From: a virus
Taxonomy: Duplodnaviria > Heunggongvirae > Uroviricota > Caudoviricetes
DNA: 19,628 nt
IMG/VR virus record: IMGVR_UViG_2711768070_000008
Span: 1-19,628 of that record
Reading direction: 5' to 3' (one strand)
Shown here: positions 890 to 19,603 of the stretch, one piece after another
Layout: every line of letters begins with the position of its first letter
Numbering within the stretch: position 1 is the stretch's first letter
The notes under the pieces: generated by a model
The model's database searches: none
What the model was told of the DNA's origin: nothing
Seen by the model: the letters and a program-made list of their open reading frames with translations, nothing else
Position numbers and translations under genes: made by a program

Positions 890-901
890 CAGTCACCTCT
901 T

Positions 902-1951: not shown

Positions 1952-1952
1952 A

Positions 1953-2231
1953 TTACCTCCAGATCCGTTGCTGGAATGTGCGGGACGGACGCGGTGGCCG
2001 TTCGGAGTAAGGGAGCCTGACGGAGATTATCCAGTGACGGTAGTCGAGGCTAAGGGCTTTTTTAACCTCGCATCCGCGCCTGCGGTAACACTGAATGAGC
2101 CATTCGGCCTGTTCTTCAGTGCATGGGGGATGCTGGTACCAGTCAGATTTGAATGCGTGAAAACACCGTCCGCGCCTGCTGGCAAAGACGGCAGAATCAT
2201 CAGAATTGTATAATTTGGTATCGTGCGCCAT
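1953..2231 (-). CDS. Small nin-region hypothetical protein (Rem-like position)
   Basis: Track ORF 1953..2312 trimmed to the internal ATG at 2231, because the longer N-terminus would run up to the terminator hairpin at 2302..2330. Confidence 0.5.
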   Translation of the reverse strand: MAHDTKLYNSDDSAVFASRRGRCFHAFKSDWYQHPPCTEEQAEWLIQCYRRRGCEVKKALSLDYRHWIISVRLPYSERPPRPSRTFQQRIWR

Positions 2232-2301
2232 CGGTTGTCTCTGCTGGCGCAGCAGGTGCCAGTTGTTCAGGCTGGCGTGCGAATTGTAAACCAGAATGCC
2301 A

Positions 2302-2330
2302 GGAAAAAACAAAACCCGCCGAAGCGGGTT
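2302..2330 (-). terminator. Rho-independent terminator downstream of hok
   Basis: Minus-strand hairpin AACCCGC-TTCG-GCGGGTT (2330..2313) followed by TTTTGTTTTTT (2312..2302). Confidence 0.7.
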
Positions 2331-2398
2331 AAGTGCGGGTGCGTTGAGGATGCCTGATTCATCAGAGGTGGCGAGGGATTTCTCCCTCGCCGGGTCTC

Positions 2399-2554
2399 TT
2401 ACTCCTCAGGTTCGTAAGCTGTGAAGACAGCGACCTCCGTCTGGCCGGTTCGGATTCGTACCTCGCAGAGGTCTTTCCTCGTTACCAGTGCCGTCACTAT
2501 GACGGTGATACAGATGACGATCAGGGCGATTAACATCGCCTTTTGCTGCTTCAT
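2399..2554 (-). CDS. hokD: Hok family type I toxin (HokD/RelF-like), 51 aa
   Basis: Sequence MKQQKAMLIALIVICITVIVTALVTRKDLCEVRIRTGQTEVAVFTAYEPEE is a textbook Hok peptide; AAGGAG RBS 9 nt upstream of the ATG at 2554; track ORF 2399..2611 includes a spurious in-frame N-terminal extension. Confidence 0.9.
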   Translation of the reverse strand: MKQQKAMLIALIVICITVIVTALVTRKDLCEVRIRTGQTEVAVFTAYEPEE

Positions 2555-2720
2555 AGCCTGCTTCTCCTTGCCTTTCGGCGCGTAAGAGGCTAACCTACAT
2601 ATGTCTAGCATGAAATTGGCCTCAGATTAATGTTAGGCGTCTTGCAGGACGCGTAATGTTAACTGGGGCTTTTCTCTGTCTGCCTTACGGTGGCATGCCC
2701 GAGGCAGACAGCCTCAAGCA
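2555..2720 (-). promoter_or_regulatory. Structured hok mRNA leader; possible mok/Sok antisense region
   Basis: Several stem-loops (e.g. CTGTCTGCC at 2676-2684 with GGCAGACAG at 2703-2711; GAGGC/GCCTC at 2701-2715) directly upstream of hok; no relBE genes present. Sok itself is not identified. Confidence 0.35.
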
Positions 2721-2769
2721 CCCGCAGCAATTCTACTTAACTCTCGCTTTACCGCAAACCGTTTTTACC

Positions 2770-2791
2770 CGATATGGGAATTCCCATATCG
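2770..2791. repeat. Perfect 22-bp palindrome CGATATGGGAATTCCCATATCG
   Basis: Read directly from the sequence; lies 9 bp beyond the stop of the 34-codon ORF; no U-tract on either strand. Confidence 0.8.
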
Positions 2792-2799
2792 TAATGAAT

Positions 2800-2904
2800 T
2801 CAGTTCCCTAGTCGATCCATCAAAAACACAACCAGGCAGTAAACGCCCACAACAGCAATAACAGCCAGAGCACCTTCCATTGCCAGTGAAATATCATCCG
2901 ACAT
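2800..2904 (-). CDS. Candidate 34-aa hydrophobic small protein (MSDDISLAMEGALAVIAVVGVYCLVVFLMDRLGN)
   Basis: ATG at 2904 preceded by AGGAGGG at 5-nt spacing; one predicted transmembrane helix; below the 60-aa cutoff of the ORF track. Confidence 0.45.
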   Translation of the reverse strand: MSDDISLAMEGALAVIAVVGVYCLVVFLMDRLGN

Positions 2905-3019
2905 ATTCCCTCCTTTGGTGTGAATCCCGGCGAACGTTTTTACCCCCACCGACAAATAACATATACTAAAAAATCAATAGCTATAGCAACGCCTGTAATT
3001 GCAAAGGCTTCAGGCCAGA

Positions 3020-3604
3020 TCATTGGCGCACCTCCTGCGGCGGTTCTGGTAGCGGCATCCAGTCGGTTACATTGCGGCTCTGTGTTTCGAAAAATTCATC
3101 ACCATTACGGACTACATCAAAAAACTCACCGTCTCGATATTGCGCATAAAGAACGAATGCGCCATCACATAAAATAATTACGTGCTGACCATCATCCGGC
3201 ATTCGCTCACTACAGCTTATCCAACCATCCGGAGTTACCGGATAGTTGGTTGACGTTTCCGAGATTTCCCGAAAATTATTGGTTGACGAACCCTTATTTT
3301 CCCGAAAGTTTCCAGCCTGAAGCATGGCGGCGCTGTCTGGCGGGGCAGCATATAGCGGCACGTATATTTCCGGTTCCTTATCAGCACCGGGTTGCTCTTC
3401 CAGTGAGAATGTCTTTCCGGTAAATCGATTCATATAAAGCACGGGCTCTGCTTCCAGCGAAGCCTGAGCAACAAGGGCCAGTGCTAAATCCAACTCAATT
3501 GCCTCGAGAGAATTTTTGAATACTGTCTGTTTTACTGCAAATTTCATCGCCTTTACATTTTCACTAACATGACTGATTAACTGCTCTTTTGTAAAAGTGG
3601 TCAT
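3020..3604 (-). CDS. DUF551-like phage protein
   Basis: C-terminal DGWISCSERMPDDG...DWMPLPEPP motif typical of DUF551; start moved to ATG at 3604 (AAGGAG RBS) from the GTG at 3664. Confidence 0.7.
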   Translation of the reverse strand: MTTFTKEQLISHVSENVKAMKFAVKQTVFKNSLEAIELDLALALVAQASLEAEPVLYMNRFTGKTFSLEEQPGADKEPEIYVPLYAAPPDSAAMLQAGNFRENKGSSTNNFREISETSTNYPVTPDGWISCSERMPDDGQHVIILCDGAFVLYAQYRDGEFFDVVRNGDEFFETQSRNVTDWMPLPEPPQEVRQ

Positions 3605-3660
3605 CTCATTCTCCTTTGATGCGAATGCCAGCGACAATTGAAGCCTGATAGCTAATTCAC

Positions 3661-4056
3661 TCACAGTACCGCCTCCTGAAAATTGCCCTGATAGAACGCC
3701 AGTACACGCAGCATAACTTCACTCTTCCGGCACTCGCCACAGATTATGTTCTGTTGTCTGTCGTAGCGGCGTATTTCTCCGTCTGGTAACTTTCGAATCA
3801 ATGTCTGGTCGGTTGCTTTCTCCGCTGCCTTACGCCATACGCGATACACCTGTTCTGATGTAAAAACACCGTATTTACCGGGCATGTATAAATCGCCACA
3901 AGCCAGTACATCCACAAGGCAACGTCTGACTGAATGCCAGCCTGCTCCCGTCGCTCTCTCCAGTTGTGATATCGTCATGCGTTCATTTTTGCGTACCAGC
4001 CCGATAATTCGGGCCTTCAGTTCTTCACGCTGTTCGTGTGTAAAAGGTTTCGCCAT
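3661..4056 (-). CDS. Hypothetical phage early protein, 131 aa
   Basis: ATG at 4056 with GGAGG RBS; fits the gap between flanking same-strand genes; no recognised family. Confidence 0.55.
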   Translation of the reverse strand: MAKPFTHEQREELKARIIGLVRKNERMTISQLERATGAGWHSVRRCLVDVLACGDLYMPGKYGVFTSEQVYRVWRKAAEKATDQTLIRKLPDGEIRRYDRQQNIICGECRKSEVMLRVLAFYQGNFQEAVL

Positions 4057-4071
4057 AAGCGCCTCCGGCTA

Positions 4072-4842
4072 TCACTTTTCCGATACAACACGGCGGGAAG
4101 AATCAGTAATCTGTCGAACAATATCCCGGTGCTTGTTCAGCTCCCGCAGCGCGGCGCAGACTCGCTCCCACTTCTGAACATCACTTTTCGCCCTGCGCAG
4201 CGCCAGGTTTGCCCTGCGCAGGGACGGAAAAATCAGCTCATCTGCTTGCGTTTCGGTAAACGATAGCAACGGCTGCACAATGTCCGCCACAGTTTCTGTT
4301 TTAATTTCTTCCTGTGTTGCGGCTTCCCGGACTGGTAACGCAGCACCTGCTGGCTGAGGAAAGGCCTTACCATCATTTTTCGTTACCGGCGCGGCTTTCG
4401 GATCTGCTGGTAAATTACCCCCCGACATGCAGTAACGAAATTTACCGTTCTGATTAACGCGTGCCAGCCGCCCCGTTGCGGTTACCACCGCCAGCGTGGA
4501 AGCAACCTTGCGAGTACTGACGCCGAACTTACCCGCCAGTTCCTCACACGTTTTAGCACCATCCTGACCGATAAACTCAACCATCATGTCTGCGGTAACT
4601 TTTGGAGCGACCTCTTCGGTTACCACATCCGGCGCTTCAGGTTGTAGTGCCTGCCCTTCGGTTACCCCGGCTTCACCTTCGACAGCCAGAAACCAGGTGT
4701 GACCCGTTTTATCAACAACGCCATTTTTTTTGAGTTCCCACAGTTCGTTAAGAACTTCTTCACGGCTGATATCAAGCCGCGCCGCCAGTTCAACAGAATT
4801 GGCTTTTCCCATCGCTTTCAGTGCATGCAATACAGTTTCCAT
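4072..4842 (-). CDS. Hypothetical phage early protein, 256 aa (possibly DUF1627-like with N-terminal winged helix)
   Basis: Operon context; N-terminal segment looks like a wHTH, followed by a low-complexity Ala/Pro/Glu-rich linker; family assignment is tentative. Confidence 0.65.
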   Translation of the reverse strand: METVLHALKAMGKANSVELAARLDISREEVLNELWELKKNGVVDKTGHTWFLAVEGEAGVTEGQALQPEAPDVVTEEVAPKVTADMMVEFIGQDGAKTCEELAGKFGVSTRKVASTLAVVTATGRLARVNQNGKFRYCMSGGNLPADPKAAPVTKNDGKAFPQPAGAALPVREAATQEEIKTETVADIVQPLLSFTETQADELIFPSLRRANLALRRAKSDVQKWERVCAALRELNKHRDIVRQITDSSRRVVSEK

Positions 4843-4867
4843 CGAAAATTTACCTCGTCAAAAATTC

Positions 4868-5608
4868 TCACATACCCTGACATCCAACGTTTGACCGCCA
4901 GCTCTCCCAGTTAAAATTCACCCAACGACCACCATTCATGGTCATACGGTCCATCACCCGATCTCCGAGGAGTGTGCTCATCGCTGCGTGATTCAGGTTC
5001 GTCAGCATTCCGACACTACGCATCGAAGCCGTTCTGCGGTCGACTATCTGGTTCAGCGTGACCTGCTCGTTGCGCGTATCCCGCTGCATGCCAATTTCAT
5101 CAAGGACCAGAAGGTCAACTCCACAAAGCTCCTGTAAAAATTTTTCCCCGGACTGGCCGTTGTCGTAGCCGTCATGCAACACGCTCATGACATCGGACAC
5201 GGTGACGATAATCACGCTTCTCCCCTTCGCCATCAGCCGATTGCCAATCGCTGCTGCCAGGTGATTTTTACCGGTACCAGGTTTACCGCTGAACACGAAG
5301 TTTGTACATCCGGTCATCAATTCATCGGCAATGGATTTCGCCTGGCTCAGAGCATGGCGCTGACCGTCGTTCTGCACCCGGTAGTTCCCGAATGAGCACT
5401 TCCTGTGAAGCGGCTGGATGCCCGCACGGTTCAGGATTTTTTCAACCCGCACCTGATGATTCAGGCGGTTAATCTCCTCGCTGCGTTTTCGTCCTTCAGC
5501 AAGTTGCCATTCCCGCCACTCCTCCACCGTCCGGTACGGTGGAACCGCCCCCTGTGGTGCAAGTCTGCGAATACGTTCAAGAACCCCAACTGCCGCAATG
5601 TTTTTCAT
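4868..5608 (-). CDS. DnaC/IstB-like AAA+ replication protein (helicase loader; Rac YdaV-like)
   Basis: Walker A GKPGTGKNHLAAAIG and Walker B LLVLDEIG; immediately downstream of the O-like gene. Confidence 0.9.
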   Translation of the reverse strand: MKNIAAVGVLERIRRLAPQGAVPPYRTVEEWREWQLAEGRKRSEEINRLNHQVRVEKILNRAGIQPLHRKCSFGNYRVQNDGQRHALSQAKSIADELMTGCTNFVFSGKPGTGKNHLAAAIGNRLMAKGRSVIIVTVSDVMSVLHDGYDNGQSGEKFLQELCGVDLLVLDEIGMQRDTRNEQVTLNQIVDRRTASMRSVGMLTNLNHAAMSTLLGDRVMDRMTMNGGRWVNFNWESWRSNVGCQGM

Positions 5609-5614
5609 GACACG

Positions 5615-6577
5615 TCACCCCCTGAATCCCGGCGGTATTTCAGTGTCCGGTTCAGAAATGTGATTCACGCAACGCTGCGCAGGCGAACGCCCCAGGCGGA
5701 TAACCAGTTCATCCCATTTTTCCCGGAGTTTTGCCGGACTCATGATGTTTTTTACCCAGAACGAATCCCGCTGGAGACGCCCAAACATTTCACAAATTTG
5801 TCTGTGAGTTCTGCCATCCAGCATCCGCATTGTGCGAACGTCATTGGCCCATGCTGTCCAGTTGGGTTCTTTCGGTCTAGTGATCTCGCCATCATAGCTG
5901 GCCGCCTGCTCGTAAAGACTCACGATTCGTCCCCAGATCCACTGTGCGCACACCAAATCTTCCTGACTTCCCCACTGGCGTTTTTTCGCACTGAACACAA
6001 CCGCGTCAGGGTGTCGGGTTAAAAAATCCTGTTCAGCCGTCTGCGGGTCCGGTTGCGAAGCGTCCGGACAAGAAGATCTTTTATCTGACGGATCAGGTTT
6101 TAATACTGACGGATCGGGGTCAATCATCGCCCCCCTAATCGGCAGTTTTTTATCAACAGTTGATCCATCAAAATTTGACGGGTCAACCGTTGAGGGGGCA
6201 ATATTTGACGGGTCAACTGTTAACTGGTCATTTTTTGCCGGGCTAATTTTTCTTTTCGGTTTATATGACTCACGCGCCGCCGCAGCTGCTGCTTCGAGTT
6301 TTTCCACATTAAGCCGATAGATATTGCTTACATTACGCCCACCGACCTTACGCTCTTCCTTCGTCAGCCAGCCCTCTTTCGCCAGTTCTGCAATAGCCGA
6401 TTTCACTGTGGATTCACTTCTTGCACCGATCTGACGCCGGATAGTTTCAATGGCAGGCCATGACACACCCTCGTCATTGCTGTAGTCTGCAAGACGGGCC
6501 ATAACCGCCACCCTGGATAAGATCATGCCGGTGAAGGCGCACCCTTCCCAGACAAGACCATGAAGCTTGCTGCTCAT
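5615..6577 (-). CDS. Replication initiator with lambda O-like architecture (Rac YdaU-like)
   Basis: N-terminal domain, then a repeat-containing linker (TVDPSN x2, DPDPS/KPDPSD) encoded by DNA iterons, then a C-terminal domain; start placed at ATG 6577 rather than GTG 6592. Confidence 0.75.
   Translation of the reverse strand: MSSKLHGLVWEGCAFTGMILSRVAVMARLADYSNDEGVSWPAIETIRRQIGARSESTVKSAIAELAKEGWLTKEERKVGGRNVSNIYRLNVEKLEAAAAAARESYKPKRKISPAKNDQLTVDPSNIAPSTVDPSNFDGSTVDKKLPIRGAMIDPDPSVLKPDPSDKRSSCPDASQPDPQTAEQDFLTRHPDAVVFSAKKRQWGSQEDLVCAQWIWGRIVSLYEQAASYDGEITRPKEPNWTAWANDVRTMRMLDGRTHRQICEMFGRLQRDSFWVKNIMSPAKLREKWDELVIRLGRSPAQRCVNHISEPDTEIPPGFRG
6085..6223. repeat. Iteron array (YTGACGGRTC-type direct repeats), putative prophage replication origin inside the O-like gene
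   Basis: CTGACGGATC at 6085 and 6106; TTGACGGGTCAAC at 6175 and 6205; palindrome ATCAACAGTTGAT at 6152-6164; adjacent AT-rich tract 6229-6272. Confidence 0.65.
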
Positions 6578-6599
6578 AAAACCCCCGAACACCGTGCTT

Positions 6600-7025
6600 T
6601 TAGTGCATCACCACAGCATTCCCTGCCGGGCCGCCGCGATTCATCTGGTCATACAAAACAACCGCTGACGCAACAAAATCGTCGACATCCTTCACCAGCC
6701 GATCCCGCCGTTCGACAATCTCCCGGTAATACTCAGAGCTGTGACTGCGCATACGGGCTACCAGCAGAGGCGGCATTGCCTTTTCGATCGCCGGTAACAG
6801 AGCCTGAATTTTTTCAACAGCATCAGGGGTGTCTTTATCCAGCCAACGGAAAATTTTCTGTGTATTACGGGCCAGGGCTTCCGGATGGCTGTCGTCGTAC
6901 AGTTCAGGGAACGTCATCCCCAGTTCGAAATAAGTCCGGGCTATTTCAGCTGCAGGAACTTTCTCACCATCAGGGTATGCCCAGGCATTCATCGCCATGC
7001 GGATGTGCTCATGTTTGATTTTCAT
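6600..7025 (-). CDS. YdaT-like protein (Rac-type, CII-position regulator/toxin family)
   Basis: 141 aa; N-terminus MKIKHEHI... as recalled for Rac YdaT; overlaps the cro-like gene by 17 nt. Confidence 0.7.
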   Translation of the reverse strand: MKIKHEHIRMAMNAWAYPDGEKVPAAEIARTYFELGMTFPELYDDSHPEALARNTQKIFRWLDKDTPDAVEKIQALLPAIEKAMPPLLVARMRSHSSEYYREIVERRDRLVKDVDDFVASAVVLYDQMNRGGPAGNAVVMH

Positions 7026-7332
7026 GAATCATTTGCCTCTTGATGCTTCGGGTATGATCGTTTTCGTCATTTGGTTGCTTCATCGACATATTCTGCGAAT
7101 AACATGACGAGCGTCGTAAGTATGTCCAATCAACATCAGGACGAAGTTCTTCACACAGGACACCACCTTTTGTTGCTCGTTCAATCGCAGGACATCTCTC
7201 AGCAGGCAACTGACGTACACCTTTGATCCATTGATTTACGCTTGGAGGAGATACACCTAAAAGCCTAGCCATTGCTGATTGCCCACCGACAACAGCACAA
7301 GCTCGTTTGAATGAATAGTTATCTTTTTTCAT
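7009..7332 (-). CDS. Cro-like HTH regulator (YdaS-like)
   Basis: Start at ATG 7332 (GGAG RBS) rather than track start 7353; HTH region ...QSAMARLLGVSPPSVNQWIKG...; divergent from the repressor gene. Confidence 0.75.
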   Translation of the reverse strand: MKKDNYSFKRACAVVGGQSAMARLLGVSPPSVNQWIKGVRQLPAERCPAIERATKGGVLCEELRPDVDWTYLRRSSCYSQNMSMKQPNDENDHTRSIKRQMIHENQT

Positions 7333-7359
7333 CGAATGAACTCCAAAAAACACGCAACA

Positions 7360-7427
7360 ATATTAGGCTTAGCCTAATACAATTATCAATAGGCTATGCC
7401 TAACACATCGAGAGTAGGGATTGCCTA
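7360..7427. promoter_or_regulatory. Right operator/promoter region: three TAGGC-N3-GCCTA operators overlapping a leftward promoter
   Basis: Operators at 7364-7376, 7390-7402 and 7415-7427 (25-26 bp centre to centre); minus-strand -35 TTGATA (7389..7384) and -10 TAATAT (7365..7360) with an 18-bp spacer. Confidence 0.6.
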
Positions 7428-7456
7428 ACGCGATGCGCATAGGAGACTATTAAGCA

Positions 7457-7933
7457 ATGCTTAGTGGTAAAGACTTAGGCCGAGCGATAGAGCAGGCCAT
7501 TAACAAAAAAATTGCATCAGGAGCCGTCAAATCAAAGGCGGAAATCGCACGTCATTTCAAAGTCCAACCACCATCAATCCATGACTGGATTAAGAAAGGT
7601 TCGATAAGTAAAGACAAACTTCCAGAACTATGGCGTTTCTTTTCTGATGTGGTTGGTCCAGAGCATTGGGGGCTTAACGAATACCCCATACCAACCCCAT
7701 CCACTTCAGATACAAAAAGTGAACTTTTAGACATAAACAGCCTTTATCAAGCCGCCTCTGATGAAAAAAGAGCAATTGTGGCTTTCCTCTTATCTGGAAA
7801 TGCTACGGAGCCTAGTTGGGTTGATCATGACGTTCGCGCCTACATTGCCGCAATGGAAATGAAGGTAGCTAACTATCTGAAAAATCAAGAATCAAAACGG
7901 AAAAGCCAGAACATCACCAAGACAGGAACTTAA
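7457..7933 (+). CDS. Prophage repressor (CI-equivalent; RacR-like)
   Basis: 158 aa; N-terminal HTH (SKAEIARHFKVQPPSIHDWIK); AGGAG RBS; flanked on both sides by operator clusters. Confidence 0.8.
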   Translation: MLSGKDLGRAIEQAINKKIASGAVKSKAEIARHFKVQPPSIHDWIKKGSISKDKLPELWRFFSDVVGPEHWGLNEYPIPTPSTSDTKSELLDINSLYQAASDEKRAIVAFLLSGNATEPSWVDHDVRAYIAAMEMKVANYLKNQESKRKSQNITKTGT

Positions 7934-8028
7934 ACTTATATGGTCCGACGGGAAATTCCTAGTTCCCGTTAGTTAACTCCTACTACCTCTCCCACAAACC
8001 ATCACCTATTAGGTCGCGCCCAAATTAT

Positions 8029-8070
8029 TAGGCATAGCCTATTGACAAGTAATTAGGCATTTCCTATAGT
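8029..8070 (+). promoter_or_regulatory. Left operator/promoter (PL-equivalent): sigma70 promoter overlapped by operators
   Basis: TTGACA (8042-8047), 17-bp spacer, TATAGT (8065-8070); operators TAGGCATAGCCTA (8029-8041) and TAGGCATTTCCTA (8054-8066). Confidence 0.65.
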
Positions 8071-8251
8071 TTTCCCATACCAACCCATCCCGTCCCACAC
8101 AATACAGGGCAATACCTCGAGTTACCAGGCAGTGGTCAGGGGTTAAGTAGCCAGCCCGAGGCGTAAGAACATGACGGCAGGGTTCAACTTTAATAACTAT
8201 GCAGCAGGTTTTTGTTCCGCTACCCCGGCGTTAAGGGGAAATGAGGTCAGC

Positions 8252-8404
8252 ATGGATACTATCGATCTTGGCAACAGCGAATCTCTGGTATGTGGCGTGT
8301 TCCCCAACCAGGACGGTACGTTCACCGCGATGACGTATACCAAAAGCAAAACGTTTAAAACTGAAGCTGGCGCGCGTCGCTGGTTAACCAGAAACACTGA
8401 CTGA
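8252..8404 (+). CDS. DUF1391 small protein (YdfA/YdaF-like), 50 aa
   Basis: Internal ATG at 8252 with GAGG RBS; first gene after the PL-like promoter; family assignment from memory. Confidence 0.6.
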   Translation: MDTIDLGNSESLVCGVFPNQDGTFTAMTYTKSKTFKTEAGARRWLTRNTD

Positions 8405-8415
8405 TGAGGTTGACG

Positions 8416-8790
8416 ATGGAATTTAAAGATTTACCAGTACCATTCCAGGAAATGGCATCGAATGTGGTTCGCTCTCAACTGGCGACTCTTGACCTGAGTA
8501 CCGTAGAAAAAGAAACCATCGATACTATATCCGGTAACGTGCGTCGTGCCTTTATCGGTCTGTACGAAGAGAAGCAGCTCTCTGATAACCAGGATTTACA
8601 TGAAAAATACTTCATGGAATTAATGGACATCATTAATAAAGGATTTGGCTTGTTAATGAAAAAGAAAGGGATTCGAATAGCTCCCCTTGAAAATCATTTT
8701 ACAGCGAGCAGTATTAATTCCTGTGATTTAAAGCATCACACATCCGATGGGAAAGTTGAATCAAACAACAAAATATCAATTAATCATTAA
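8416..8790 (+). CDS. Hypothetical protein, 124 aa
   Basis: ATG 8416 with GAGG RBS (start 8404 also possible); in the position of ydfB/ydfC upstream of dicF. Confidence 0.55.
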   Translation: MEFKDLPVPFQEMASNVVRSQLATLDLSTVEKETIDTISGNVRRAFIGLYEEKQLSDNQDLHEKYFMELMDIINKGFGLLMKKKGIRIAPLENHFTASSINSCDLKHHTSDGKVESNNKISINH

Positions 8791-9094
8791 TTTATTCACA
8801 GGTGAGGTAGAGTGCGTGCGCCGGACACGGATAAGAATCCGGCACTGACAGTTTACTGAAAAGGATATATCCCTGAAAAGTCAGGGCATAACACGAAAGC
8901 GCCCGGCGAAGTTAGTCTCTCTGTATAGGTCGTCGTTAAATTTAATTCGATCGTGCGCTTCCGGTTGTGGCAATCCGCGAAATGGCGCGGCGGTAAGTAT
9001 GGCGGGGTTATTCCTTCCCCGTTGAGGACACCGGGTTGTCAGGTTGACCATACGCTTAAGTGACAACCCCGCTGCAACGCCCTCTGTTATCAAT

Positions 9095-9147
9095 TTTCTG
9101 GTGACGTTTGGCGGTATCAGTTTTACTCCGTGACTGCTCTGCCGCCC
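9095..9147 (+). ncRNA. dicF: DicF small RNA (ftsZ-targeting), 53 nt, with terminator U-tail to 9152
   Basis: Sequence TTTCTGGTGACGTTTGGCGGTATCAGTTTTACTCCGTGACTGCTCTGCCGCCC matches the DicF sequence as recalled; GGCGG...GCCGCC stem then TTTTT; directly upstream of dicB. Confidence 0.7.
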
Positions 9148-9321
9148 TTTTTAAAGTGAATTTTGTGATGCGGTGAATGCGGCTGAGCGCACGCGGAACA
9201 GTTAAAACCAAAAACAGTGTTATGGGTGGATTCTCTGTATCCGGCGTTAATTGTTAACTGGTTAACGTCACCTGGAGGCACCAGGCACCGCATCACAAAA
9301 TTCATTGTTGAGGACGCGATA

Positions 9322-9510
9322 ATGGAAACGTTATTACCAAACGTTAATACGTCTGAAGGTTGTTTTGAAATTGGTGTCACTATCAGTAACCCTGTATTTA
9401 CTGAAGATGCCATTAACAAGAGAAAACACGAACGGGAGCTATTAAATAAAATATGCATTCTTTCAATGCTGGCCCGTTTACGTCCGATACAAAAAGGATG
9501 CTGGCAATGA
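9322..9510 (+). CDS. dicB: Cell division inhibitor DicB, 62 aa
   Basis: METLLPNVNTSEGCFEIGVTISNPVFTEDAINKRK... recognised as DicB; GAGGA RBS; track ORF 9217..9510 is an N-terminal over-extension. Confidence 0.8.
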   Translation: METLLPNVNTSEGCFEIGVTISNPVFTEDAINKRKHERELLNKICILSMLARLRPIQKGCWQ

Positions 9511-9698
9511 ATACAGCATTTGCACTTGTTCTGACAGTTTTTCTTGTTTCCGGAGAGCCAGTTGATATTGCAGTCAGCGTTCACAGGACAATGCAGGAGT
9601 GTGTGACTGCAGCAACCGAACAGAAAATTCCCGGTAACTGTTACCCGGTCGATAAAGTTATTCACCAGGATAATATCGAAATCCCGGCAGGTCTTTAA
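9507..9698 (+). CDS. ydfD: YdfD-like small protein with hydrophobic N-terminal segment, 63 aa
   Basis: ATGA overlap with the dicB stop; AAGGA RBS; N-terminus MNTAFALVLTVFLVSG. Confidence 0.6.
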   Translation: MNTAFALVLTVFLVSGEPVDIAVSVHRTMQECVTAATEQKIPGNCYPVDKVIHQDNIEIPAGL

Positions 9699-9790
9699 AA
9701 CAGTTCCGTAATAAACATCCGATTTCATTCTTATATGCCAGCAATGGCAGGGATTTGTTCACCCTTAAATCTGTAATGAGGTAAAACAAA

Positions 9791-12262
9791 ATGAGTAAAG
9801 TCTTTATTTGCGCCGCCATTCCGGACGAACAGGCAATAAAGGAAGAAGGTGCAGTCGCTGTAGCCACTGCCATTGAAGCTGGCGACGAACGCCGTGCTCG
9901 AGCAAAATTTCACTGGCAGTTCCTGGAACATTATCCGGCTGCTCAGGACTGCGCTTATAAATTTATTGTCTGCGAGGATAAACCTGGCATACCCCGCCCT
10001 GCCCTCGATTCATGGGATGCTGAATATATGCAGGAAAACCGCTGGGATGAGGAGTCTGCTTCTTTTGTCCCGGTTGAGACTGAATCCGATCCGATGAACG
10101 TCACTTTTGACAAGCTGGCCCCTGAAGTACAGAACGCTGTCATGGTTAAGTTCGACACATGTGAAAACATCACCGTTGATATGGTGATTAGCGCACAGGA
10201 ATTGTTGCAGGAAGACATGGCAACATTCGACGGACATATCGTTGAAGCGTTGATGAAAATGCCAGAAGTTAACGCCATGTATCCGGAGCTTAAGCTGCAT
10301 GCCATCGGGTGGGTTAAGCATAAATGTAAGCCTGGTGCCAAATGGCCCGAAATTCAGGCAGAGATGCGCATCTGGAAAAAACGTCGCGAAGGTGAACGCA
10401 AGGAAACCGGAAAATACACGTCTGTTGTTGATCTCGCCCGCGCCAGAGTCAATCAACAGCACACTGAAAATTCAACAGGAAAAATCAGCCTGGTCATTGC
10501 TGCCATTCATCGCGAATACAAGCAGACATGGAAAACACTGGATGACGAACTGGCCTACGCTCTCTGGCCTGGTGATGTGGATGCCGGAAACATTGACGGC
10601 AGCATCCATCGCTGGGCAAAAAATGAAGTTATCGACAACGACCGCGAAGACTGGAAGCGTATCTCGGCATCAATGCGCAAACAGCCTGATGCCCTTCGCT
10701 ACGACCGCCAGACTATTTTTGGCCTTGTCCGTGAACGTCCGATCGACATTCACAAAGACCCTGTGGCACTGAACAAATACATTACTGAATACCTGACTAC
10801 AAAGGGCGTGTTTGAAGATGAAGGAACAAATCAGAGCGCAACTGATACTCTCTCGTCGTCAGTACCAGAAACTGATGCAGTGGAAACGGCAATTCCGGAC
10901 AACGAAAAAACCGAATGCAAAGTGGAAGTCGAACCATCTGTAGAGCGTGAGGGGCCGTTCTACTTCCTCTTCACCGACAAGGATGGCGAAAAATACGGTC
11001 GCGCAAACAAACTTTCTGGTCTGGATAAGGCACTGGCTGCCGGGGCTACTGAAATCACGAAAGAAGAATATTTCGCCCGCAAAAACAGTACATACTCAGG
11101 TTCACAACAAAATACTGGTGCATCTGACACGACCGCACAACCAGAGCCGGTAAAAGTTACCGCTGACGAAGTAAACAAAATTATGCAGGCAGCCAATATC
11201 AGCCAGCCTGACGCCGATAAGTTGCTTGCTGCCTCTCGCGGAGAATTTGTTGCAGGGATTAGCGACCCGAATGATCCGAAATGGGTTAAGGGGATCCAGA
11301 CCCGCGATTCTGTAAACCAGAACCAGCATGAATCGGAACGGAACTACCAAAAAGCGGAACAAAACAGCCCAAATGCGTTACAAAACGAGCCAGAAACGAA
11401 ACAGCCTGAACCAGTGGCGCAACAGGAAGTGGAAAAAGTCTGCACCGCCTGCGGTCAGACCGGCGGCGGCAACTGCCCTGATTGTGGCGCAGTGATGGGC
11501 GACGCAACATACCAGGAAACATTCGATGAAGAGTATCAGGTTGAAGTTCAGGAAGATGATCCGGAGAAAATGGAAGGCGCTGAACATCCACACAAGGAGA
11601 ACACTGGCGGCAATCAGCATCACGATAGCGATAATGAAACTGGCGAGACGGCAGATCACTCAATTAAGGTGAACGGTCATCAAGAAATCACATCCACCAG
11701 CAGGACGTGTGACCATCTAATGATCGACCTTGAAACCATGGGAAAAAATCCTGATGCCCCGATCATCTCAATAGGTGCAATATTTTTCGATCCGCAAACC
11801 GGAGATATGGGACCGGAATTTAGTAAGACTATCGATCTGGAAACTGCTGGCGGAGTCATTGATCGGGACACCATTAAATGGTGGCTTAAGCAATCACGCG
11901 AAGCGCAATCTGCCATTATGACCGATGAAATCCCGTTAGATGATGCACTGTTACAATTGCGGGAATTTATCGACGAAAACTCCGGTGAATTTTTTGTTCA
12001 GGTCTGGGGAAATGGAGCCAACTTCGACAACACGATTTTGCGCCGTTCATACGAACGGCAGGGGATCCCCTGCCCGTGGCGTTACTACAACGATCGCGAT
12101 GTACGCACAATCGTTGAGCTGGGGAAAGCCATAGACTTCGATGCCAGAACGGCTATTCCATTCGAAGGTGAGCGCCATAATGCACTTGATGACGCCCGTT
12201 ACCAGGCAAAATACGTTTCAGTTATCTGGCAAAAACTGATCCCGAGTCAGGCTGATTTTTAA
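9791..12262 (+). CDS. Large prophage exonuclease, 823 aa: RecE-like central segment, CxxC-x8-CxxC zinc ribbon, C-terminal DnaQ-like DEDDh 3'-5' exonuclease domain
   Basis: GAGGT RBS; segment [31 protein letters not shown] recalled from Rac RecE; C-terminal motifs [16 protein letters not shown] and HNALDDA; [16 protein letters not shown]. Confidence 0.8.
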
Positions 12263-12320
12263 TGTTCAACCCTAATTGCCGCTAACCGTATATAGTTAGC
12301 GGCGGTTATGAGATATAGCT

Positions 12321-12524
12321 ATGAGCAACTTATTTTTAACCGAAGATGAATTGCTAATATTAACGGGCTGCAAATATGCAAGCCACCAGCGAAAATGGTT
12401 AACGGAAAACGGGCTTCCGTTCTATACCAATCGTAGTGGCAAACCGATTGTCAGCCGGGATCTATTTACCTGCAATAAAACTTTACCACCACGCGAGGTA
12501 GAGCCGAATTTTGGTGCAATCTAA
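12321..12524 (+). CDS. xis: Excisionase-like protein (Xis)
   Basis: 67 aa, immediately upstream of int with a 1-nt overlap; resembles small phage excisionases. Confidence 0.6.
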   Translation: MSNLFLTEDELLILTGCKYASHQRKWLTENGLPFYTNRSGKPIVSRDLFTCNKTLPPREVEPNFGAI

Positions 12525-13549
12525 TGGGAAGACGAAGGAAAAATCCTGAACACGAAAAACTACCTCCAAATGTATACCCAAATAAATATAGTTATGTATG
12601 GAAACCAACATCCAGAGAATCTGTCACACTAACCGCCATCAAGGATGGTTTAGCTGCTTTATGGAAAAAGTATGAGGAAACTGTAAATAATCGCGATCGT
12701 GCAATGACATTCGGTCGCTTGTGGGAAAAATTCCTCGCCAGCGCCTATTACAGTGACCTCAGTCCAAGAACACAAAAAGATTATCTGCAACATCAAAAAA
12801 AGTTGCTTGCCGTATTCGGTAAGGTGCCGGCAGATTCCATAAAACCAGAACACATCCGTCGATACATGGACAAGAGAGGGGAACAGAGTAAAACGCAAGC
12901 CAACCATGAAAAAAGCAGTATGTCCCGCGTTTACAGTTGGGGGTATGAGCGAGGGTACGTGAAGGCTAACCCATGTGCAGGTGTAAGTAAATTCAAGGCC
13001 AAAAACCGCGAACGATATGTAACCGACAAAGAATACCAGGCAGTATTAAGCGTTGCACCTCTTCCTGTTTTTATCGCAATGGAAATTGCCTATCTGTGTG
13101 CAGCGAGGGTTTCCGATGTGTTATCGCTGAAATGGGAGCAGATTGGAAACGACGGAATCTTTATCCAGCAAGGGAAAACAGGAAAAAAACAGATAAAAGC
13201 ATGGAGTCCACGATTACAGGCGGCGATCGAAAAAGCAAAACAGTTACCAACATCCGCCTATGTAATCAGTAATCAATACGGCAACCGATATATGTACAAA
13301 GGCTTTAACGAAATGTGGGTAGAAGCAAGAAATCGCGCAGGCAAAATTTCAGGTATTTTAACCGACTTCACCTTTCATGATCTGAAGGCGAAAGGAATTT
13401 CAGACTATGAAGGAAGCAGTCGGGATAAGCAACTTTTCTCTGGTCACAAAACCGAGGGGCAAGTGCTAATCTATGACAGGAAGGTTAAAGTTTCACCGAC
13501 ACTTGATGTCCCGTTACCTGAAAATATTCCAAGAAAATATTCCAAGTAA
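12524..13549 (+). CDS. int: Lambda-family tyrosine integrase
   Basis: 341 aa; C-terminal catalytic region with R...HDLKAKG...Y (LIYDRK); ends 52 bp from the tRNA-Ser 3' end. Confidence 0.9.
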   Translation: MGRRRKNPEHEKLPPNVYPNKYSYVWKPTSRESVTLTAIKDGLAALWKKYEETVNNRDRAMTFGRLWEKFLASAYYSDLSPRTQKDYLQHQKKLLAVFGKVPADSIKPEHIRRYMDKRGEQSKTQANHEKSSMSRVYSWGYERGYVKANPCAGVSKFKAKNRERYVTDKEYQAVLSVAPLPVFIAMEIAYLCAARVSDVLSLKWEQIGNDGIFIQQGKTGKKQIKAWSPRLQAAIEKAKQLPTSAYVISNQYGNRYMYKGFNEMWVEARNRAGKISGILTDFTFHDLKAKGISDYEGSSRDKQLFSGHKTEGQVLIYDRKVKVSPTLDVPLPENIPRKYSK

Positions 13550-13601
13550 TTCCAAGTGTGATTTTTGTCACTGACTTAATGATGTATAAGTGATTGAATT
13601 T

Positions 13602-13691
13602 TGGCGGAGAGAGGGGGATTTGAACCCCCGGTGGAGTTGCCCCCACTCCGGTTTTCGAGACCGGTCCGTTCAGCCGCTCCGGCATCTCTCC
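13602..13691 (-). tRNA. serU: tRNA-Ser (anticodon CGA)
   Basis: 90 nt; GGAGAGA acceptor stem, long variable arm, GGTTCAAATCC T-loop, CCA end; anticodon loop CU-CGA-AA. Confidence 0.9.
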
Positions 13692-13784
13692 GTTCAGATG
13701 GTTGCCATGATGCCAGGAAATTTGGCATTTTAACAGTCCCTGTCCGTGCAATTTTGTTCAAGTGACGAGTTTGCGAGCAAAACG

Positions 13785-14582
13785 ATGATTAAGTGGCCCT
13801 GGAAAGTACAAGAATCAGCACATCAAACTGCCCTTCCCTGGCAGGAAGCACTATCGATCCCCCTTTTAACGGGTCTGACGGAACAGGAACAAAGCAAATT
13901 AGTCACTCTTGCCGAACGTTTTTTACAGCAAAAGCGGCTTGTTCCTTTACAGGGCTTTGAACTGGATTCATTAAGAAGCTGCCGGATAGCACTTCTATTT
14001 TGCCTACCCGTTCTGGAGTTAGGACTGGAATGGCTGGATGGTTTTCATGAAGTCTTAATTTATCCTGCGCCATTTGTGGTCGATGATGAATGGGAAGACG
14101 ATATCGGTCTGGTGCATAACCAACGTATTGTTCAGTCAGGTCAGAGCTGGCAGCAAGGGCCTATCGTTTTGAACTGGTTGGATATACAAGATTCTTTTGA
14201 TGCATCTGGTTTTAACCTGATTATTCATGAAGTCGCTCATAAGCTGGACACCCGTAACGGCGATCGCGCCAGCGGAGTTCCCTTTATTTCGTTGCGTGAG
14301 GTTGCTGGCTGGGAACACGATCTTCATGCTGCAATGAACAACATTCAGGAAGAAATCGAATTAGTTGGTGAGAATGCGGCGAGCATTGATGCTTATGCTG
14401 CCAGTGATCCTGCTGAATGTTTTGCCGTACTTTCTGAATATTTCTTTAGCGCCCCAGAACTTTTTGCTCCTCGTTTCCCTTCATTGTGGCAACATTTCTG
14501 TCAATTTTATCAACAAGATCCTTTGCAGAGACTGCATCACGCTAATGATACAGACTCGTTTTCGGCGACGAATGTTCATTAA
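13785..14582 (+). CDS. mtfA: MtfA (Mlc titration factor A) zinc-dependent peptidase
   Basis: Recognised sequence beginning [10 protein letters not shown]; HEVAHK zinc-binding motif; track ORF 13746 start is an over-extension. Confidence 0.9.
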
Positions 14583-14635
14583 TTAACAACTTTGCAGATT
14601 AATTAACCAATTGAAATGGCTTATGAAATTTAGTG

Positions 14636-14664
14636 TTGACAGACAAGGTACCGCTAAGTAATAT
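14636..14664 (+). promoter_or_regulatory. tRNA-Asn promoter
   Basis: TTGACA (14636-14641), 17-bp spacer, TAATAT (14659-14664), GC-rich discriminator GCGCTCC, AT-rich upstream region. Confidence 0.6.
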
Positions 14665-14682
14665 GCGCTCCGTTCACACGAT

Positions 14683-14758
14683 TCCTCTGTAGTTCAGTCG
14701 GTAGAACGGCGGACTGTTAATCCGTATGTCACTGGTTCGAGTCCAGTCAGAGGAGCCA
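14683..14758 (+). tRNA. asnT: tRNA-Asn (anticodon GTT)
   Basis: 76 nt canonical E. coli tRNA-Asn sequence; the asnT name comes only from its position next to mtfA. Confidence 0.95.
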
Positions 14759-14765
14759 TTTTCAA

Positions 14766-14795
14766 GAAAGCAGACGTTCACTAACGTCTGCTTTC
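14766..14795 (+). terminator. Stem-loop downstream of tRNA-Asn
   Basis: GAAAGCAGACGTT-CACT-AACGTCTGCTTTC perfect 13-bp stem; following tract is only moderately T-rich. Confidence 0.55.
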
Positions 14796-14938
14796 TGCAT
14801 TTCTATCAATTGGTTATCCCCTCTCAGTCGTTCACCCTCGTTCACTAAAAACCACTCGAAGCCATATCATTTTGATGGTAAAAATGCTGGTAATGCTGGT
14901 TCGATTTCCCTTTTACCAACAAATGAGGGGGTGTTTTC

Positions 14939-16213
14939 ATGTCACTGACTGATATTAAAGCAAAAAATGCAAAACCCCTTGAGAAGGAATACAAGCTTAC
15001 TGATGGCTTTGGTATGTTCCTTCGTGTTACCCCTAAAGGTTCGAAATACTGGCAAATGGCTTACCGCTTCGAAGGGAAACAAAAACTCTTCTCTATTGGT
15101 GTTTACCCTGCAGTTTCTCTTTCTGACGCAAGACAACGCCGTGACGAGGCCAGAAGGCTTCTGGCTCAGGGTATTGACCCTAATGCAAAGAAACAGGCAG
15201 AGGTTAAAGAGCTTAAAGCCAAACGTGATAATACACGCTCCTTCAGAACAGTAGCCAAAGCGTGGTTCTCCACGAAAACAAAATGGTCTGATGATTATGG
15301 CGATGCCGTATGGAAGCGCCTTGAAACTTATGTCTTCCCGGTAATCGGTGACAAAGATGTTGCCGAACTGGATACGGGTGATCTGCTGGTTCCGGTGAAA
15401 AAAGTTGAGGCTCTTGGTTATCTTGAAGTTGCCATGCGCATTCAACAATACATTACGGCAATCCTGCGTCATGCCGTCCAGCAAAAGCTGATACGCCATA
15501 ACCCAGCCTATGATATGGAAGGTGCAGTTCAGAAACCACAAACTGAACACCGCCCTGCACTTGAGCTGGAAGAAATACCCCAGCTACTGAACAAAATTGC
15601 CGAATACAAAGGCCGCAGGTTAACCATACTGGCAATACAGCTCAATCTGATGATTTTCATTCGTTCCAGTGAGCTTCGTTTCGCTCGCTGGTCTGAAATT
15701 GATTTCAAAAGTAAGTTATGGGTGATACCCGAACAGCGTGAAGCAATTGAAAACGTCAAACATTCGACTCGTGGTGCCAAAATGAAGCGTAAGCACTTCG
15801 TTCCCCTTTGTAAGCAAGCTATGAGGATACTAAAAGAGATCCGACAACTGACTTATGAAGAAGGCCATGATGATGGATTAATCTTCACTGGCTGTTATGA
15901 CTCGTTTAAACCCATGAGTGAAAACACCATCAACAAAGCCCTGCGTAATATGGGATATAACACGAAGCAGGACATCTGTGGACACGGTTTCCGCACTCTG
16001 GCCTGTAGTGCCTTAATTGAGTCCGGGCTATGGTCAGAAGACGCTGTAGAGCTTCAAATGAGCCATAAGGAAAGCAACAGCGTCCGTGCTGCTTATACCC
16101 ACAAGGCTAAACACCTTGATCAACGCCGTCTGATGCTCCAATGGTGGGCTGACTACCTTGATGCAAGCAGAAACGGTATGGTAAGGCCGTTTGAGTTTGC
16201 TTCAAATAAATAA
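14939..16213 (+). CDS. int: P4-type tyrosine integrase
   Basis: 424 aa; N-terminus MSLTDIKAKNAKP...YKLTDGFGMFLRVTPKGSKYW typical of P4-like integrases; C-terminal HGFRTL...Y catalytic motifs; GAGGGGG RBS. Confidence 0.9.
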   Translation: MSLTDIKAKNAKPLEKEYKLTDGFGMFLRVTPKGSKYWQMAYRFEGKQKLFSIGVYPAVSLSDARQRRDEARRLLAQGIDPNAKKQAEVKELKAKRDNTRSFRTVAKAWFSTKTKWSDDYGDAVWKRLETYVFPVIGDKDVAELDTGDLLVPVKKVEALGYLEVAMRIQQYITAILRHAVQQKLIRHNPAYDMEGAVQKPQTEHRPALELEEIPQLLNKIAEYKGRRLTILAIQLNLMIFIRSSELRFARWSEIDFKSKLWVIPEQREAIENVKHSTRGAKMKRKHFVPLCKQAMRILKEIRQLTYEEGHDDGLIFTGCYDSFKPMSENTINKALRNMGYNTKQDICGHGFRTLACSALIESGLWSEDAVELQMSHKESNSVRAAYTHKAKHLDQRRLMLQWWADYLDASRNGMVRPFEFASNK

Positions 16214-16216
16214 AGG

Positions 16217-16238
16217 GAAAGGCCGTTCGCGGCCTTTC
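16217..16238. terminator. Hairpin between convergent int and orphan gene (possible bidirectional terminator)
   Basis: GAAAGGCCG-TTCG-CGGCCTTTC. Confidence 0.5.
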
Positions 16239-16259
16239 AACTTCATGCTTAATTACACT

Positions 16260-17651
16260 CTATGCTGAATATGATACTGAATCTTTCTCTATCACTAAAC
16301 CAGCGATTTTTTCCAGCATTATTTCCCAGAGTGCGTATTTTCTTTTGTGCTCAATAAACAGGGATTTTAAATACTCTTCTGTAGAAGGGATTTTTTCAGT
16401 CCATGTAATATCTTTACTGTAATCAATGCTTTTTTTCATATCAGATGCTGCATAGGTGTAGTATTTACTCTGAGAACGACTGATACTGTCCTCTGCCAGA
16501 ACTCTACGGAGCAGAGTTGCAGAACATGCATAACCATGCCTGTAAAGTTCACTCGATAAAGTACGAACAAAAGAACCGCGTAATAAAGACATCATCTCTG
16601 CGATTTCATTTTCACTCGCATTCATGACTTCAGAATCAAGTTTTCCATAACTATCCGTCCCGGACAAGAAAAGAATAACAAACGGAAAGCCTTTGTTCTT
16701 TGCTATGCCAGAGAACAAATCCAGTGAGTCATTATTTTTCTCTACCCGATTATAGATATTATAAAAAATAACATCACACCTGTTCTTAAATCCGTCTATA
16801 CAAATTGTTTTTGCCTGCTGAATCTCGCCTTCTTCAATCAACGCCAGAGCCAACACCTCAGTCCATTTATCACGAAGCCCTGCCTGATCAACTGATTTAT
16901 CTTCTTTGATTTTATTGAGAACCTGAATGGCTTCCTCAGTGCACAGTTCATCAACCAGCAACTCAGCAAACTTAATGATGTATTCTGGCTGGTTCAGTTT
17001 TCTTTTCTCAAAGCATTGCCTGATGAAATCAACATCCCTGATATACAGACTTAACTCAACAGCATAATTAACATTACCTGTCTTAAGAAGACTTTCCCTT
17101 AAAGCACGAATAACATTGTATCCAAGCTCTTTTTTATACTTATCAAAAATATCAAAGTTAAAATATACATCACCTTTAAGCACGGAAAGTATTTTATCCG
17201 CTATAACATCAATGCTTTTATCTTTTTGTAGGGACAGGGATTTTAACCATGTTTCGACAGCACCATTATAATAGTCCATCCATGATCCATCTGATGTATC
17301 AGCAATTTCGCTGATTTTATCAAATGAGAGCAGTAAATCATGGCAAAACGCCTCGGTTTTTTCAGGCAGCGTTGATACCGTCTTTTCAAGTGGAAATATG
17401 ACATTCCTGTATAGCCCCTCAAAAAAAACCGCTGCTTCATAATAATCATAAAAGCGTTTTGTTTTAATTACCCTTTTGTATTCAGCCTCAGCCTTTTTCA
17501 GTGATTCTTCTGGAGTTAACAGATATTTATTAATAATAAAGGATTTTGCCTGACCATTATTCTCTGCAATATCACAAATTATTTGCATGAGTTGATCGGC
17601 AGGCATTTCCTTGAGTAAAGCAAGTTGTTTCTTGTTCAGTTTAGCCATCAT
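16260..17651 (-). CDS. Orphan protein of unknown function (~463 aa; 484 aa from the farthest ATG), AT-rich, predicted largely helical
   Basis: Long ORF with no recognisable catalytic motifs; start placed at ATG 17651 or 17648 (AGGA upstream) rather than 17714 (no RBS); divergent from the mod gene. Confidence 0.7.
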   Translation of the reverse strand: MMAKLNKKQLALLKEMPADQLMQIICDIAENNGQAKSFIINKYLLTPEESLKKAEAEYKRVIKTKRFYDYYEAAVFFEGLYRNVIFPLEKTVSTLPEKTEAFCHDLLLSFDKISEIADTSDGSWMDYYNGAVETWLKSLSLQKDKSIDVIADKILSVLKGDVYFNFDIFDKYKKELGYNVIRALRESLLKTGNVNYAVELSLYIRDVDFIRQCFEKRKLNQPEYIIKFAELLVDELCTEEAIQVLNKIKEDKSVDQAGLRDKWTEVLALALIEEGEIQQAKTICIDGFKNRCDVIFYNIYNRVEKNNDSLDLFSGIAKNKGFPFVILFLSGTDSYGKLDSEVMNASENEIAEMMSLLRGSFVRTLSSELYRHGYACSATLLRRVLAEDSISRSQSKYYTYAASDMKKSIDYSKDITWTEKIPSTEEYLKSLFIEHKRKYALWEIMLEKIAGLVIEKDSVSYSA

Positions 17652-17842
17652 CACATCCTGATAATGTTTGGTAGACGCATAAAAGCTAATTGTACTAATA
17701 CAAGGACAGGACATTCAATAAATGCATTAACATAATGATTTAAAAAGAAATCTGTAGCACACTGTTCATTGATGAAATGCACTATTTACCGTAAAATATC
17801 CCCCATCACACAGTAACCTGATACAGATACGTGGAATGGTCA

Positions 17843-19573: not shown

Positions 19574-19603
19574 GATCATCATATTCATCCGGAGCGCATC
19601 CCA

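Follow-up and report, generated by a model that had tools for sequence, protein, structure and literature searches.

In Escherichia coli K-12, the dicBF operon (ydfABC-dicF-dicB-ydfDE) is carried by the Qin prophage and codes for a small RNA (sRNA), DicF, and a small protein, DicB. DicF, together with Hfq, pairs with the ribosome-binding site of ftsZ, and this pairing was validated by compensatory mutations (PMC5069750); the sRNA also represses xylR, pykA and manX (PMC10448788, PMC5069750), and in K-12 work the repression of xylR occurs via its 5′ end. DicB directs MinC to the septum and blocks the ManYZ-dependent entry of phage DNA (PMC10448788). The module occurs in multiple prophage contexts, with multiple copies in O157:H7 (PMC5069750). 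Another K-12 prophage, Rac, has the immunity region racR-ydaS-ydaT-ydaU-ydaV, where the stretch between racR and ydaS has three palindromic repeats that are bound by RacR (PMC5700373). The locus described here lies in a stretch of 19,628 nucleotides, hereafter the window, corresponding to positions 1 to 19,628 of the IMG/VR virus record IMGVR_UViG_2711768070_000008; it contains dicF, dicB and ydfD of the Qin kind next to a repressor region of the Rac kind.

Indeed, blastn aligns positions 8797-10557 of the window with K-12 Qin at 95.6% identity, from downstream of ydfC through dicF, dicB and ydfD into ydfE, while positions 7002-8239 align with K-12 Rac at 86%, spanning ydaS, racR and the leftward promoter. 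A tblastn search for DicA, DicC, Rem, YdfB, YdfC, KilR, SieB, YdaG, YdaE, RacC and RecT found none of them in the window. The blastn map and these absences, together with the protein identities and the operator layout, indicate that a Qin-type dicF-dicB payload is placed behind a Rac-type switch. The original prediction of a Qin/Rac mosaic is thus borne out, both by the two aligned segments and by RacR (91.8%), YdaS (84.7%), YdaV (79%) and the operators shared with Rac; what the parts are, where the mosaic is joined and how the operators are arranged can be read directly from the DNA. The locus is best regarded as a cell-division-inhibition cassette of the standard dicBF kind in a lambdoid prophage, apparently under the control of a Rac-type switch, a reading to which we assign a probability of roughly 0.88. 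The coordinates of all features are collected in Table 1.

The 53-nt K-12 dicF sequence (NC_000913, b1574) matches the plus strand at 9095-9147 in 53 of 53 positions, which is its single exact occurrence in the window; on the Rfam DicF model (RF00039), 9096-9147 covers model positions 1-52 of 52 with 76.7 bits (gathering score 48; E 1e-15). DicF has no substitutions relative to K-12, and its 5′ seed is unchanged. A poor alignment with K-12 DicF had been named beforehand as a possible refutation of the predicted 53-nt sRNA; the alignment is perfect, and the predicted pairing with ftsZ is retained as well. The 3′ hairpin (stem 9110-9116/9140-9146 plus 9118-9121/9133-9136; -15.9 kcal/mol) is followed by TTTTT at 9148-9152, and its stem is paired in 100% of the alignment cells across 14 relatives; this stem-loop with its U-run has the form of an intrinsic terminator, which is also an Hfq-type 3′ end. 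Nucleotides 24-53 of DicF pair in silico with the K-12 ftsZ ribosome-binding site (-29 to +1) at -27.9 kcal/mol, a value equalled or bettered by 15 of 1000 shuffles. The duplex of full-length DicF with a long ftsZ leader (RNAduplex) was not distinctive, as shuffles were equally good in 67/500 and 149/1000 cases; thus, the specific ftsZ pairing signal comes from the 3′ half of DicF only.

The other two members of the module are also present where they had been predicted, in the PL-type (leftward) operon of a lambdoid prophage. DicB reaches 127.4 bits on the Pfam profile PF05358 (cut-off 27), with residues 1-62 on profile positions 1-62; YdfD, encoded directly 3′ of dicB, reaches 90 bits on PF07358 (DUF1482; cut-off 25), and its ATG overlaps the dicB stop codon in the sequence ATGA. 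By analogy with K-12, the DicB of the window would inhibit division in a MinC-dependent manner.

Compared with the K-12 Qin operon, the window has the same gene order, with DicF identical (53/53), DicB at 89% and YdfD at 95%, the same untranslated stretches on either side of dicF and an exonuclease gene downstream. Unlike Qin, it lacks dicA, dicC, rem, ydfB and ydfC, and its promoter/operator region is of the Rac type. The DUF1391 protein encoded by the first gene of the operon shares 90% of its residues with Qin YdfA and 86% with Rac YdaF. In place of ydfB and ydfC there is an open reading frame (ORF) for 124 aa, labelled “hypothetical protein” by the Prokaryotic Genome Annotation Pipeline (PGAP) in 159 genomes as well as in strain 2013C-4991; the roughly 300 nt that separate it from dicF contain no ORF. 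The exonuclease is full length here (823 aa), whereas it is truncated by IS2 in K-12; its alignment with YdfE spans 256 aa at 97% identity, that with the middle of RecE shows 39%, and its C-terminal part is an Rv2179c-like 3′-5′ exonuclease domain (Pfam, residues 642-813). Because only the middle of the protein is RecE-like and there is no recT partner, the label “exonuclease VIII” given in some phage records may mislead. On the opposite strand, a 201-aa ORF antisense to dicB and ydfD (9123-9728, minus) was considered as a gene and rejected: it matches no family, and it is taken not to be a gene because nine of 11 close relatives have stop codons in it and a tenth has a frameshifting indel.

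The control region of this operon resembles that of Rac. The repressor gene is of the RacR type, and near-identical copies of it are named racR by PGAP. The window has six copies of the operator palindrome TTAGGC-N3-GCCTAA versus 0.53 expected, all of them around the repressor gene: two sites, plus a weaker third, overlap the promoter at 8042-8070, and three lie between racR and ydaS. The same three-plus-two layout is found in K-12 Rac, with homologous sites at 10630 and 10655 of its locus (L005), and the PR-like promoter shares with its Rac counterpart the -10 hexamer TAATAT and the 18-bp spacing. We infer, on good grounds, that the dicF operon is controlled by the RacR-like repressor. Since the cassette appears to be under RacR-type control, and not under that of DicA/Rem, it should be induced by the signals of Rac and not by those of Qin. 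At 2249-2304, where the ydfU-like block of homology is followed by the hokD block, the window lacks the Qin segment bearing the antirepressor gene rem, which fits the loss of DicA, the target of Rem.

On the other side of the repressor, the minus-strand arm had been described as carrying YdaS/YdaT/YdaU/YdaV-like genes, making both the immunity and the replication modules Rac-like, and this holds in part. RacR, the operators, YdaS and YdaV do correspond to Rac; the YdaS-like protein scores 103.7 bits on Pfam YdaS_toxin (PF15943) and 35 bits on P22_Cro. YdaT is a member of the expected family (PF06254), but it is of the type found in CP-933P, the prophage of E. coli O157:H7: it is only 31% identical to Rac YdaT, while it is near-identical to the CP-933P protein of PDB entry 8bt1 (E 1e-88, 140 aa). 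Between the two types of YdaT, identity is about 30% (PMC11879457). The gene in the position of ydaU does not fit the description, as it codes for a lambda-O-like initiator with a Pfam HTH_36 domain; its resemblance to YdaU is confined to the last 19 aa (68%), and Pfam gives no DUF1376 (YdaU) match in 5615-6592. In addition, sieB, ydaG, ydaE, racC and recT of Rac are absent here, and where the leftward operon of Rac has kilS and kilR, that of the window has dicF and dicB. The likeness to CP-933P includes a TTGATT-N6-AATCAA-like box at the ydaS/ydaT junction, but the repressor side is paaR2-paaA2-parE2 in CP-933P and RacR-type in the window. This candidate YdaT box lies where the end of ydaS meets the start of ydaT, which is the location of the primary site described in PMC9986795; box matches are no more numerous in the window than expected by chance, and the evidence is the position of the site.

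A sequence of events can be proposed, largely after K-12. When the RacR-like repressor (7457-7933) is lifted, the sigma-70 promoter at 8042-8070, which is overlapped by operators, would drive a long leftward-type transcript comprising the ydfA-like gene, the 124-aa ORF, the untranslated stretch of about 300 nt, dicF, a leader, dicB, ydfD, the exonuclease gene and xis/int. RNase III and RNase E would excise the 53-nt DicF as they do in K-12, with its own hairpin and U-run providing the 3′ end. DicF, with Hfq, would then block FtsZ synthesis through its 3′ half on the ftsZ ribosome-binding site and repress xylR through its 5′ end, while DicB would send MinC to the septum and block ManYZ-dependent phage DNA entry; YdfD would act as a small lysis protein. 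The element could accordingly be expected, from the K-12 experiments, to block cell division if derepressed, as the original prediction had it.

Several points weigh against this interpretation. DicB differs from the K-12 protein at seven of 62 residues, five of which fall within the last ten. The ftsZ pairing was calculated on the K-12 leader, that of the host being outside the window. Published RacR binding concerns the racR-ydaS intergenic region, and no report of RacR binding to the operators of the leftward promoter, even in K-12, was found in the literature. The promoter scan as a whole does no better than shuffles (five sites versus 4.8), so that only the quality and the position of the 8042-8070 promoter count. 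Finally, RacR repression, DicF processing and the division phenotype are attributed to the source strain by extension from K-12.

A different question is for which effect the cassette has been kept. Selection may have acted on phage exclusion and on metabolic or virulence tuning, and not on division arrest, and this alternative is given somewhat less than even odds. Its known basis is the DicB block of ManYZ-dependent entry and the DicF repression of xylR, pykA and manX in K-12 (PMC10448788, PMC5069750). The DicF 5′ seed is unchanged in the window, and near-identical early regions are found across many serotypes of Shiga toxin-producing E. coli (STEC). In enterohaemorrhagic E. coli, DicF activates pchA at low oxygen. 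However, exclusion and tuning are compatible with division inhibition, being exerted by the same molecules, and the window does not discriminate between these roles.

The division-inhibition cassette under its Rac-type switch includes a further RNA element, the leader between dicF and dicB. Its minimum free energy (MFE) is -67.7 kcal/mol (z = -5.88), and none of 200 shuffles is equally stable; even a 12-bp perfect stem occurs in only one of 2000 shuffles, whereas the closing helix here has 19 bp and stops 5 nt short of the dicB Shine-Dalgarno sequence. In the consensus fold of eight versions of the leader, compensatory changes are seen at five of the 44 pairs. Positions 9159-9299 match the Rfam family STnc100 (RF02076) with 39.8 bits (E 3.4e-7) over model positions 21-154 of 206, a partial match that does not reach the gathering score of 47; the leader is thus a sub-threshold relative of the family and not a certified member of it. 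STnc100 has been described as a prophage-associated sRNA family that marks phage-derived regions (bioRxiv 10.64898/2026.05.13.724894); unlike a free-standing STnc100 gene, the leader here is internal to an operon.

In K-12 Rac, the same leader, at about 80% identity, separates kilR from the kilS sRNA, and it is also found between a DicF-like sRNA and the Kil gene in Shigella phage 75/02 Stx. In all three cases an sRNA with a terminator is followed by a structured leader of about 170 nt and then by a small division inhibitor, but KilR and Kil have no detectable similarity to DicB, and the sRNAs differ in their 5′ seed part. The Rfam DicF model, whose gathering score is 48, gives 39.1 bits on the annotated kilS of K-12 Rac (9411-9466 of L005, minus), so that KilS appears to be a divergent relative of DicF in the corresponding place of Rac; the name KilS was not met in the literature searched. 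Because the leader is shared and KilS is DicF-like, dicF-dicB and kilS-kilR appear to be two forms of a single cassette, ending in genes for unrelated proteins. It is tentatively suggested, with the odds somewhat against it, that the leader at 9148-9321 is a conserved cis-acting RNA module coupling the RNase III release of the upstream sRNA to the translation of the downstream division inhibitor; if this were true, DicF-DicB and KilS-KilR would be interchangeable payloads of one RNA-gated cassette.

Three further observations concern the leader. Nine nucleotides at the 5′ end of DicF (9100-9108) are complementary to 9264-9272 of the leader, and the leader site is the same where the 5′ end of the sRNA differs. 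A partial STnc100-like leader lies between the tRNA-Ser and tRNA-Ile genes of the 89-kb E. coli plasmid pCUVET20-PYO4.3 (L019, 701-821), with no dicF or dicB nearby. A 247-bp stretch of the Aeromonas phage AP1 record (MT713136.1, 254 kb) is 98.4% identical to the dicF-leader segment and looks like contamination or a chimeric assembly.

As to the release of DicF, in K-12 RNase E generates the 5′ end of the 53-nt form and RNase III that of a 190-nt species (PMC10448788), while the 3′ end of a 72-nt form is made by RNase III and that of the 53-nt form by the terminator (PMC5069750). Two stem-loops upstream of dicF (hairpins 1 and 2 in Table 1) had been put forward as candidate processing signals. 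Both are present at the predicted positions (8871-8886 and 9033-9069), and both form in the MFE fold of 8865-9094. The chance of such stems was assessed on shuffles of 8797-9094: 27% of them contain a perfect hairpin with 6 bp or more and a loop of 3-8 nt, and 2% contain a perfect stem with 9 bp or more; hairpin 1 is thus at chance level, and hairpin 2 is mildly non-random. In hairpin 1, the outer three pairs are formed in just 49% of the alignment cells, and only 4 bp exist in K-12 Qin, where processing was mapped, and in most relatives; the E. ruysiae and Shigella versions have other sequence in place of the whole segment, and the block that is conserved in them does not include this hairpin. 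In hairpin 2, seven of the nine pairs are invariant in 14 relatives, whereas the other two vary only by breaking, with no covariation. The whole stretch upstream of dicF (8865-9094) folds no better than its shuffles (z = -1.28). A fold of 8800-9160 (z = -1.41) was discarded as unrealistic, the DicF terminator being broken in it.

The published product lengths point to other helices, which are conserved here. Counting back from the end of DicF, the 190-nt precursor would begin at 8958 (9147-189), within the 3′ arm of the helix 8887-8969; counting 72 nt on from 9095, the 72-nt form would end at 9166, in the middle of the 5′ arm of 9157-9175/9286-9304. The RNase III cuts therefore probably fall in these two helices, by length arithmetic and not by mapped ends. 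In the helix 8887-8905/8952-8969, 91-99% of the alignment cells are paired in the 14 relatives, and changes are one-sided only. The contig scan for relatives gave eight loci, mostly about 95% identical; because these are few and near-identical, the power to detect covariation in the upstream helices is low, and the fact that most of their pairs never vary argues neither way.

It is consequently improbable that the hairpins at 8871-8886 and 9033-9069 direct the processing of DicF by RNase III or RNase E. In favour of hairpin 2 are its scarcity among shuffles and its invariant 7-bp core, and its end, 26 nt upstream of the DicF 5′ end generated by RNase E, would allow a role as structural guide; against it, its changes break pairs without compensation, and RNase III requires about two helical turns, which neither hairpin has. 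We conclude that both hairpins are real sequence features, and that the evidence does not indicate them as processing sites.

The cassette is widespread. The segment 8800-9700 has matches in 4737 of 5426 complete E. coli genomes, at a median of two places per genome, and is 100% identical in strain 2013C-4991. The arrangement from RacR to DicB (7400-9550) is covered for at least 80% in 159 genomes, with 98% identity in the best twelve, and the 98%-identical copies are labelled by PGAP as racR, DUF1391, hypothetical protein, dicB and ydfD. Many STEC genomes, O103:H2 and O45:H2 among them, match positions 1-12271 at 99.3% identity. The cassette is also found in 59 phage records, among which are isolated temperate phages, and DicF is annotated in the record of Tritos. 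In the phages Tritos, mEp460_ev081, PhiR42_1 and vB_EcoS-640R1, dicF-dicB-ydfD is 93-98% identical and lies, as here, between the repressor and the exonuclease/xis/int genes; unlike here, the immunity and replication modules are of other kinds, those of Tritos being annotated as “CI repressor”, “Cro” and a Rha-family regulator.

It is very unlikely that the cassette, with its intact sequence, is a silent relic, never expressed and of no contribution to the host: the K-12 operon is tightly repressed in laboratory conditions (PMC10448788) and the integrase of close relatives is marked as frameshifted by PGAP, but no ORF is interrupted, neither the promoter nor the operators are damaged, DicF is free of substitutions, DicF accumulates in stationary phase in K-12, and the module is kept in most complete genomes, often in multiple copies, as well as in isolated phages. 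For the cassette as a division-inhibition module under a Rac-type switch, the combination itself is already known and annotated in many E. coli genomes, and DicF, DicB, YdfD, RacR, YdaS and YdaT have all been characterised, so that it carries little weight as a discovery; its RacR-type control may be relevant in the STEC lineages that have near-identical early regions.

Table 1. Position, strand and basis of identification of the features of the window (a point in the strand column: no strand given).
Feature	Position	Strand	Basis
dicF sRNA with terminator hairpin	9095-9147	+	five-T run at 9148-9152
dicB, 62 aa	9322-9510	+	55/62 residues as in K-12 DicB (88.7%)
ydfD, 63 aa, DUF1482, annotated lysis protein	9507-9698	+	60/63 residues as in K-12 YdfD (95%)
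Structured leader, 174 nt	9148-9321	+	closed by perfect 19-bp helix 9157-9175/9286-9304
RacR-type repressor	7457-7933	+	91.8% to K-12 RacR over 158/158 aa
PL-like promoter, TTGACA-17-TATAGT	8042-8070	+	11/12 consensus positions
Operators at PL-like promoter	8028-8042, 8053-8067; weaker third 8009-8023	+	palindrome motif
OR-like region, operator palindromes 7363-7377, 7389-7403, 7414-7428	7360-7428	.	racR-ydaS intergenic
PR-like promoter, TTGATA-18-TAATAT, in OR-like region	within 7360-7428	-	promoter scan
Hairpin 1, CCCTGA/TCAGGG, 6 bp, 4-nt loop	8871-8876/8881-8886	+	inverted repeat present
Hairpin 2, GGGTTGTCA/TGACAACCC, 9 bp, 19-nt loop	9033-9041/9061-9069	+	inverted repeat I4
Imperfect long-range helix, about 18 bp	8887-8905 with 8952-8969	+	inverted repeat I3; likely RNase III substrate
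YdfA/YdaF-like DUF1391 protein, first operon gene	8252-8404	+	Pfam DUF1391, 94.7 bits
124-aa ORF, function not known, in ydfB/ydfC position	8416-8790	+	phrog_6937, 254 bits; no Pfam family
823-aa exonuclease, full length	9791-12262	+	intact form of K-12 ydfE pseudogene; phrog_2082 match
DUF4224 protein	12321-12524	+	Pfam; same annotation in strain A1
Tyrosine integrase, prophage end	12524-13549	+	Pfam; same annotation in strain A1
YdaS-like Cro analogue	7009-7332	-	84.7% to Rac YdaS; ATG 7332-7330
YdaT, CII analogue, CP-933P type	6600-7025	-	Pfam YdaT_toxin (PF06254), 42.6 bits
Candidate YdaT box, TTGATTTTCATGAATCAT	7015-7032	.	one mismatch to published TTGATT-N6-AATCAA
Replication initiator, lambda-O-like, in YdaU position	5615-6592	-	phrog_391 “replication initiation O-like”, 383 bits; start codon uncertain
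DnaC/IstB-like helicase loader, YdaV homologue	4868-5608	-	79% to Rac YdaV over 246 aa; Pfam IstB_IS21, 70.7 bits
DUF1627 protein	minus-strand arm	-	
tRNA-Ser(CGA), next to integrase	13602-13691	-	ARAGORN, Rfam
P4-type integrase, second island	14939-16213		
DUF6880 protein, second island	16260-17714	-	
N6/N4 DNA methylase, 580 aa, second island	17831-19573		
IS5 end, 83 bp, second island	19546-19628		

In the rest of the window, a hok/sok type I toxin-antitoxin locus is found at 2399-2723 on the minus strand, with HokD 98% identical to the Qin copy and sok recognised by Rfam at 2549-2723 (114 bits). At the integrase end of the prophage, the tRNA-Ser(CGA) gene is the probable attachment site, and the host genes mtfA and tRNA-Asn lie beyond it, as in strain A1. 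Directly after tRNA-Asn, a second island occupies the window from 14683 to its end at 19628.

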